A stretch of 8,762 nucleotides of DNA from IMG/VR virus record IMGVR_UViG_2548876943_000018; one strand, written 5' to 3'. The DNA is from a virus. Its lineage: Duplodnaviria > Heunggongvirae > Uroviricota > Caudoviricetes. The position numbers and the translations under genes were made by a program. Numbering within the stretch: position 1 is the first letter of the stretch; every line of letters begins with the position of its first letter. Below, piece after piece: positions 3,720 through 4,551 of the stretch. The notes under the pieces are model-generated. The model was not told the origin of the DNA. It searched no databases and was given only the letters and a program-made list of their open reading frames with translations.

Positions 3720-3884
3720 ATGGCAAGGATTATTGTCAACATCAGCGCAACAGTTTTCACCCTTATGCTCTTATTTAGGGCATTGTTCACTTACATTTAT
3801 CCAGACACACTTCCTTTCGATATAGCTATCATCGACTGGCTTGTCGTAGCTTCAGGTTCAGGTGCTGCCATTTCTTCTATCTGA
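3720..3884 (+). CDS. Hypothetical 54-aa hydrophobic peptide ([54 protein letters not shown])
   Basis: ATG at 3720 with AGGAAA 7 nt upstream; TGA at 3882-3884, right at the prophage/csiD junction. Two hydrophobic stretches. Hand-translated (under 60 aa). Confidence 0.3.
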
Positions 3885-4551
3885 TGTGGCGCAGGCAGAT
3901 GAGATGGTGAAGCTGGCAACGGCGGTAGCGCATCTGATTGGTCGCTCAAATTTCGATGCGATGAGCGGTCAGTATTACGCGCGTTTCGTGGTGAAAAATG
4001 TCGATAACTCAGACAGCTATCTGCGTCAGCCGCACCGCGTGATGGAACTGCACAACGACGGCACGTATGTCGAAGAGATCACCGATTACGTGCTGATGAT
4101 GAAAATCGATGAGCAAAACATGCAGGGTGGAAATTCGTTGCTGCTGCATCTCGATGACTGGGAACATCTGGACCACTATTTCCGCCATCCACTGGCGCGT
4201 CGCCCAATGCGCTTTGCCGCGCCGCCGAGCAAAAACGTCAGCAAAGATGTTTTCCATCCAGTGTTCGACGTTGATCAACAGGGTCGCCCGGTGATGCGCT
4301 ATATCGACCAGTTCGTCCAGCCGAAAGACTTCGAAGAAGGCGTGTGGTTGAGCGAGCTTTCGGACGCCATTGAAACCAGCAAAGGCATTCTTTCTGTACC
4401 CGTTCCCGTTGGCAAATTCCTGTTGATAAACAACCTGTTCTGGCTGCACGGTCGCGACCGCTTTACTCCGCACCCGGATCTGCGCCGTGAACTGATGCGT
4501 CAGCGCGGCTACTTCGCTTACGCCACTCACCACTACCAGACGCATCAGTAA
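3862..4551 (+). pseudogene. csiD: 5'-truncated csiD/glaH (glutarate 2-hydroxylase, Fe(II)/2-oxoglutarate-dependent); only about the C-terminal 222 codons are native
   Basis: The 229-codon ORF matches the C-terminal two-thirds of CsiD from ...[32 protein letters not shown]... onward. The frame is closed upstream by TAG at 3847-3849, and the sequence before about 3883 is AT-rich and unrelated. Native CsiD is about 325 aa as I recall, so the promoter and roughly the first 103 codons are missing. Confidence 0.75.

Follow-up and report, generated by a model that had tools for sequence, protein, structure and literature searches.

Prophage DNA abutting csiD in Escherichia coli: a probable deletion scar rather than an integration site

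An 8,762-bp stretch of Escherichia coli DNA (the window) joins the right arm of a lambdoid prophage directly to the 3' part of csiD (glaH). We conclude with high confidence that this joint, at base 3882, was left behind by a single chromosomal deletion through illegitimate recombination and is not the place where the phage integrated. In intact relatives the phage DNA runs on past the equivalent of this base and glaH follows in a collinear position, so the window carries a deletion that extends from codon 55 of a phage DUF4760 gene to codon 103 of csiD. The main value of this result is one of correction: what a first-pass annotation had taken for a new attB within csiD, possibly acting as an excision-dependent switch, appears instead to be a deletion scar.

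Layout of the window and of the joint

All genes of the window lie on the + strand in the ORF listing and are arranged as follows:

72..890, +, ead/Ea22-like prophage gene (ORF; annotated in CB9615 and 493/89; Pfam Ead_Ea22 in carrier contigs)
887..1390, +, DUF551 prophage gene (ORF)
1478..1720, +, DUF4222 prophage gene (ORF)
1879..2088, +, excisionase-like small ORF (xis), overlapping the start of int (homologue annotated 'excisionase' in C311)
2043..3227, +, tyrosine integrase, int (Pfam Arm-DNA-bind_2, 4e-21, and Phage_integrase, 9e-19)
3228..3719, +, AT-rich spacer, phage DNA and not an att site (~30-38% GC; 100% identical to the CB9615 prophage)
3720..3884, +, 5' remnant of the DUF4760 gene, 54 of 307 codons (TGA at 3882-3884 made by the junction)
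3882..3882, no strand, probable deletion junction with one shared base, T (comparison of prophage and csiD)
3883..4551, +, 3' remnant of csiD/glaH, codons 104-325 and stop (Pfam CsiD; alignment to full-length GlaH)
4571..5839, +, lhgO, intact, without csiDp (ORF, annotation)
5862..7310, +, gabD, intact (ORF, annotation)
7324..8604, +, gabT, intact (ORF, annotation)

Base 3882 is the last base of phage origin, preceded by xis, int and the AT-rich spacer; from 3883 onward the window reads codons 104-325 of csiD/glaH and then lhgO, gabD and gabT. The first-pass annotation had noticed that phage DNA abuts csiD at about codon 104 and proposed an alignment with an uninterrupted csiD to fix the point exactly. 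Run against the native gene of SE11 and thousands of other E. coli, this alignment places the breakpoint at base 3882, where native identity starts at the last position of codon 103, so that codon 104 (3883-3885) is the first to be native in full. The surroundings had also been described correctly: a TAG at 3847-3849 shuts the csiD frame upstream, and the DNA before it is AT-rich, of phage type, and carries int and xis, as borne out by a GC scan (~30-38% at roughly 3150-3750 vs 52-58% in csiD and beyond), by Pfam and by the excisionase homologue. The excisionase-like ORF itself (1879..2088) gave no Pfam match. The promoter of csiD, likewise reported as lost, is indeed absent from the window, as are codons 1-103.

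Base-by-base comparison of the two parents leaves a single T (3882) that prophage and csiD have in common at the joint; the flanks are 100% phage on one side and 100% csiD on the other, right up to this base. Sequence inspection revealed neither an IS element or IS end nor an att core at the joint, and no direct or inverted repeat signature beyond the one shared base. Both breakpoints fall inside coding sequences, with the DUF4760 and csiD frames 1 nt out of register: window 3720-3882 holds the first 54 codons and one further base of a 307-codon phage gene, and the stop that closes this remnant, TGA (3882-3884), is composed of the last phage base and the first two csiD bases. What is missing at the scar is codons 55-307 of DUF4760 and the csiD codons listed above.

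On the phage side, window 1-3880 is 100% identical to the complete genomes of O157:H7 493/89 and LSU61 (the LSU61 match being established up to window 3880 only) and 99.9% identical to O55:H7 CB9615; the ead/Ea22-like gene opens the right arm that the prophages of these three strains have in common. The counterpart in C311 of the ORF that starts at 3720 is more distant, at 89.5% identity. On the chromosomal side, window 3883-8762 is 99.96-100% identical to CFSAN004176 (99.96% over 4.9 kb) vs ~98% for most E. coli.

Attachment at ssrA and the origin of the junction

The prophage of CB9615 starts directly after ssrA (tmRNA) and ends at an attR that repeats the 3' end of ssrA exactly over 31 nt (CGGGTTCAACTCCCGCCAGCTCCACCACTTT); this attR lies 99 bp past the DUF4760 stop and 860 bp beyond the equivalent of the window breakpoint. 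The two flanking repeats (L016 3475-3505 and L003 2196-2226) are identical at 31/31 positions, and C311 carries the same 31-nt ssrA repeat at the same place. Because the CB9615 prophage abuts ssrA on one side and has this direct repeat of the ssrA 3' end past DUF4760 on the other, the attachment site of this prophage is ssrA; an integrase with an arm-binding domain lies by att, with the excisionase upstream. The window holds no copy of the ssrA core and no 12-mer in common with the ssrA 3' region tested, and a scan of the window and of the CB9615 locus (L003) at the Rfam gathering thresholds returned only a tRNA in L003 and no ssrA fragment in the window.

The prophage thus falls among the lambdoid prophages of EHEC and EPEC that integrate at ssrA, which for EHEC is a classical site; Sp17 of O157:H7 Sakai is presumably a member of the same group. 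In the record of CP-1639 (from O111:H- 1639/77) a fragment of ssrA is annotated, and it matches the attR region of CB9615; ssrA is also among the prophage sites listed in STEC (Nakamura 2021, PMC8112680). Both CP-1639 and the CB9615 ssrA prophage resemble the window in their lambda-like early region (gam, bet, exo, ea22, xis, int), and ssrA lambdoid prophages also have in common with it an integrase with an Arm-DNA-bind_2 domain. Intact members are flanked by the ssrA 3'-end repeat, whereas the copy in the window has its int-proximal att and most of the int-att gene deleted, leaving it one-ended and non-excisable.

Two observations concern the rest of the prophage. Carriers of the junction and the CB9615 prophage have only their right 7.46 kb in common (99.3% identity), approximately from DUF2528/cIII to the breakpoint (L005 1-2700, L001 1-2420); further left, a lambda-type rexA-rexB-N-sieB-ral region in the carriers faces a different repressor region in CB9615, a difference typical of lambdoid mosaicism. 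Upstream of Q, the CB9615 prophage also carries one tRNA-Ile and two tRNA-Arg genes.

It is the region beyond the breakpoint that sets the relatives apart from the window. In CB9615, 493/89 and C311, phage DNA runs past the equivalent of 3882 into a full DUF4760 gene. An intact glaH then lies downstream in the same orientation, 36.9 kb from the breakpoint equivalent in CB9615 and 9.4 kb from it in C311, and joining the two breakpoints would remove 36,889 bp or 9,402 bp, respectively. The flanks of the joint are thus collinear and in the same orientation in relatives that retain the intervening DNA, as a deletion would have it, and the minimal homology at the joint, with no mobile-element end, points to illegitimate recombination. 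Past attR, CB9615 carries another integrase gene, defence-type and other island genes, ypjA, a tRNA, an alpha-amylase-family gene (which we take to be ygaQ of K-12) and then glaH-lhgO; several integrase genes are found in this interval. The set of island genes downstream of attR is shorter in C311 than in CB9615, 493/89 has the same next integrase gene as CB9615 in addition to the same full DUF4760 gene, and SE11 and C311 both have an IS3 at 1.5 kb before glaH. CFSAN004176, which is closest to the carrier backbone, matches neither CB9615 nor C311 in this interval. The stretch between ssrA and csiD is highly plastic.

In CFSAN004176 the interval (L017 9599-28422) is occupied by the remains of a degraded prophage, which include espK and nleL, together with copies of IS600, a gene of the reverse transcriptase family and a relaxase of the MobQ type; glaH of this strain is intact. 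A tRNA with a CAU anticodon also belongs to the interval in CB9615 (L003 34692-34767) and in CFSAN004176 (L017 8775-8850), with a further tRNA position at L016 40288-40363. It is annotated as tRNA-Ile (ileY) and called Met by ARAGORN; no tRNA is annotated in the stretch fetched upstream of glaH in SE11 or C311. The carrier lineage has probably lost an ileY-type tRNA copy.

We propose that the ancestor would have carried a lambdoid prophage at the 3' end of ssrA, in the order ssrA/attL, tail and head genes, early genes, xis, int, DUF4760, attR, one or more islands and csiD-lhgO-gabDTP, with prophage, islands and operon all in one orientation. One deletion would then have removed the remainder of DUF4760 together with attR, the islands and the promoter of csiD, including the sites for CRP and CsiR at this promoter. 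Judged by the intact relatives, the stretch removed would amount to 9.4 to 36.9 kb, a range that is to be read with the proviso that the ancestral content may have differed. The scar would subsequently have been passed on clonally in one E. coli lineage, and the other end of the prophage would be expected at ssrA, without a 5' fragment of csiD. Collinearity and parsimony favour a simple deletion over a transposition of the intervening segment, although this DNA may have been relocated elsewhere in the carrier genome instead of being lost; the carrier loci that were fetched cover no more than 10 kb leftward of the junction.

Such an event has close parallels in the chl-bio-uvrB deletions of lambda lysogens, in which one end likewise lies in the prophage and the other in a host gene, att is lost, the prophage can no longer move, genes of the host are inactivated and homology at the joint is slight or absent. 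Chlorate-resistant deletions of this type were reportedly used by Adhya, Cleary and Campbell in 1968 to map prophage lambda. The window differs in that it records a natural event in a wild lineage and in that the genes concerned are ssrA-side islands and csiD, not chl, bio and uvrB. Cryptic prophages of E. coli K-12 that lack att represent similar decay, and the event in the window is ordinary genome decay, a new instance of a well-known kind.

Could the phage nevertheless have integrated into csiD, with the 5' half of the gene at the other prophage end and excision restoring it? This was the view of the first-pass annotation, and the local arrangement invites it: the truncated csiD is directly preceded by int and xis, and the integrase gene is followed by an AT-rich stretch, where attP often sits. 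Yet the same arm continues for 860 bp to the ssrA repeat in CB9615, whose partner lies at ssrA, and 493/89 has the same continuation, with full DUF4760 and the next integrase gene. The phage does not end at this base in independent lysogens; the breakpoint cuts a phage ORF at codon 54 of 307, the parents have only 1 nt in common, no core was found that is shared by phage and target and repeated at both ends, and in both CB9615 and C311 a prophage of this type is followed by an intact csiD that reads in the same direction. We therefore regard integration into csiD as highly improbable, and neither the junction as integration site nor csiD as a new attB can be upheld. The proposed excision-dependent switch is excluded because attR is deleted, which leaves it inoperable. 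Genuine switches of this kind are known from active lysogeny, with phi10403S in comK of Listeria and SPbeta and skin in spsM and sigK of Bacillus subtilis; these resemble the window in that a prophage lies beside a split protein-coding gene, but they work only with both halves of the gene and two att sites present, and precise excision restores the gene. In the window attR and the 5' part of csiD are absent where they would be needed, and the breakpoint is no att core.

If the junction is a deletion, an enzyme of a mobile element might still have made it, either as an IS-mediated adjacent deletion or through aberrant action of Int (on attR or the att of the next island and a secondary site in csiD), an idea that gains some appeal from the wealth of integrases and IS elements between ssrA and csiD in relatives. 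An adjacent deletion would leave the IS behind, however, and no IS end is present at the joint; neither breakpoint corresponds to an att core, the left one falling 860 bp short of attR within an ORF, and no repeat signature extends beyond the one shared base. This route is improbable, if somewhat less so than integration. Least credible of all is an artefact of assembly, or a chimera, joining unrelated phage and chromosomal reads. The junction is found in 0 of 5,426 complete RefSeq E. coli genomes, and the best matches differ by side, being O157/O55 for the phage part vs CFSAN004176 for the chromosomal part, but prophage arms are mosaic and mobile, so that differing best matches are to be expected, and the identical junction recurs in 11 contigs obtained by different projects with different methods. 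The artefact reading was dropped once an exact look-up of the 54-aa remnant ORF had returned many independent contigs.

A 45-nt string spanning the junction is present in all 11 of the independent contigs that were fetched, which are 99.5-100% identical to the window and come from NCBI isolate genomes (including one 5.5-Mb contig), two ENA metagenomes and Logan run assemblies. Isolate carriers are GCA_000940355.1, GCA_910593955.1, GCA_000946755.2, GCA_002457875.1 and GCA_017118345.1. Overall, 33 contigs are recorded with the 54-aa remnant ORF and 69 with the 215-aa CsiD remnant. Because the same junction is seen in independent assemblies, the scar is genuine and has spread by clonal descent in an E. 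coli lineage of modest size, for which it provides a clean clonal marker; a literature search found no description of this junction among the papers it listed. In GCA_910593955.1 (L006), the junction is located near 2.5507 Mb of contig CAJVAO010000001.1; this assembly shows 26 gap openings relative to the window within 8.8 kb, and many of its genes (int, lhgO, gabD, gabP) are broken up, which looks like uncorrected long-read indel errors and not biology.

The interval between int and att

In its full form, the DUF4760 gene measures 924 nt, encodes 307 aa and occupies the same position in CB9615, 493/89 and C311. The Pfam DUF4760 domain covers residues 106-252 of the full protein, and none of it is kept in the window. 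In these three strains, the interval from int to the ssrA-type att carries this 307-aa DUF4760 membrane protein (L003 1174-2226 in CB9615); PhiR12_5, which has the same integrase type (integrase gene 92-94% identical), carries in its place three unrelated small ORFs on the opposite strand (L019 2780-4400). DUF4760 is a cargo gene between int and attR, and the interval holds variable cargo. The full-length DUF4760 protein matched no defence-system model in PADLOC, and among free phage genomes none was found with int plus DUF4760.

Several features were observed in the spacer between int and DUF4760. Promoter-like sites lie at 3399-3426 and 3446-3475, a 12-codon ORF runs from ATG 3595 to TAA 3633 (MKKTLAVGFGEG), and a strong terminator-like hairpin occupies 3678-3699, only 20 nt 5' of the DUF4760 start codon. 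The folding of 3480-3712 beats that of shuffled versions (z = -2.5), and a relaxed Rfam scan of 3200-3950 gave only sub-threshold matches at chance level (STnc180, E=0.25; Phe_leader, E=0.95). The spacer at 3446-3707 could correspond to a small phage-encoded RNA or to a leader of DUF4760.

Predicted consequences for the prophage, the operon and the enzyme

With attR deleted, the prophage cannot excise through Int and Xis and should be locked in place. The related CB9615 prophage carries type III effector genes, and a loss of excision would fix cargo of this sort in the chromosome.

The operon, for its part, has been separated from its regulatory region. The promoter csiDp drives the whole operon, and gabDTP are also induced separately (Knorr 2018). 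In the window lhgO would have lost csiDp, no other promoter being known for this gene, and a consensus scan of the + strand detected no promoter-like site between 3476 and 4571. Judging from such consensus scans only, lhgO in a repressed lysogen should either be silent or receive no more than weak read-through out of the prophage, and is predicted to be poorly expressed in the carrier lineage. The gabDTP genes would keep their own internal promoters; Metzner reportedly described two of them in 2004, gabDp1 and gabDp2, and separate induction of gabDTP. The regulatory gene csiR is still present downstream in the carrier contigs, presumably orphaned by the loss of its operator at csiDp.

The deletion has also placed lhgO-gabDTP downstream of the early leftward operon of the prophage (N, gam, bet, exo, xis, int), on the same strand. 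Escape synthesis is classical in excision-defective lambda lysogens, and there is a small chance that, upon SOS induction, antiterminated read-through from pL combined with replication in place could express and amplify csiD'-lhgO-gabDTP, in which case the catabolism of L-2-hydroxyglutarate and GABA would be SOS-inducible in the carrier lineage. In a weaker variant of this idea, the 215-aa CsiD remnant could be translated by coupling to the 54-aa ORF (TGA 3882-3884, ATG 3904) and keep some function.

As for the enzyme, CsiD/GlaH is a tetramer with a distorted jelly-roll fold, in which H160, D162 and H292 form the Fe(II) triad and R309 and R311 bind the substrate (Knorr 2018). Alignment to full-length GlaH shows that all five residues are kept in the remnant, for which gene calls give either 215 aa from ATG 3904 or 229 aa from GTG 3862. 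The remnant nevertheless matches the Pfam CsiD profile (PF08943) over positions 91-294 of 294 only and falls short of the full-length jelly-roll (~325 aa) of a functional CsiD/GlaH, residues 1-103 being absent; solved structures of GlaH span residues 1-325, or 15-325 in 1JR7. From its sequence, csiD in the window would be a pseudogene that has lost the N-terminal third of the jelly-roll fold, and glutarate 2-hydroxylase activity has likely been lost with it. The first-pass annotation had expected this activity to be abolished and the control of lhgO to be rewired; loss of the activity and of normal lhgO control are both reasonable expectations, the loss of activity standing as a prediction. 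Carriers would then fail to hydroxylate glutarate, which is predicted to build up in stationary phase as it does in a csiD knockout (Knorr 2018).

A second 5'-truncated form of CsiD was encountered in the searches (P0022; 272 aa, starting near residue 54, 97% identity), on 23 contigs of up to 207 kb. Next to the hypervariable ssrA-ileY island region, csiD may thus have been clipped independently in another lineage.
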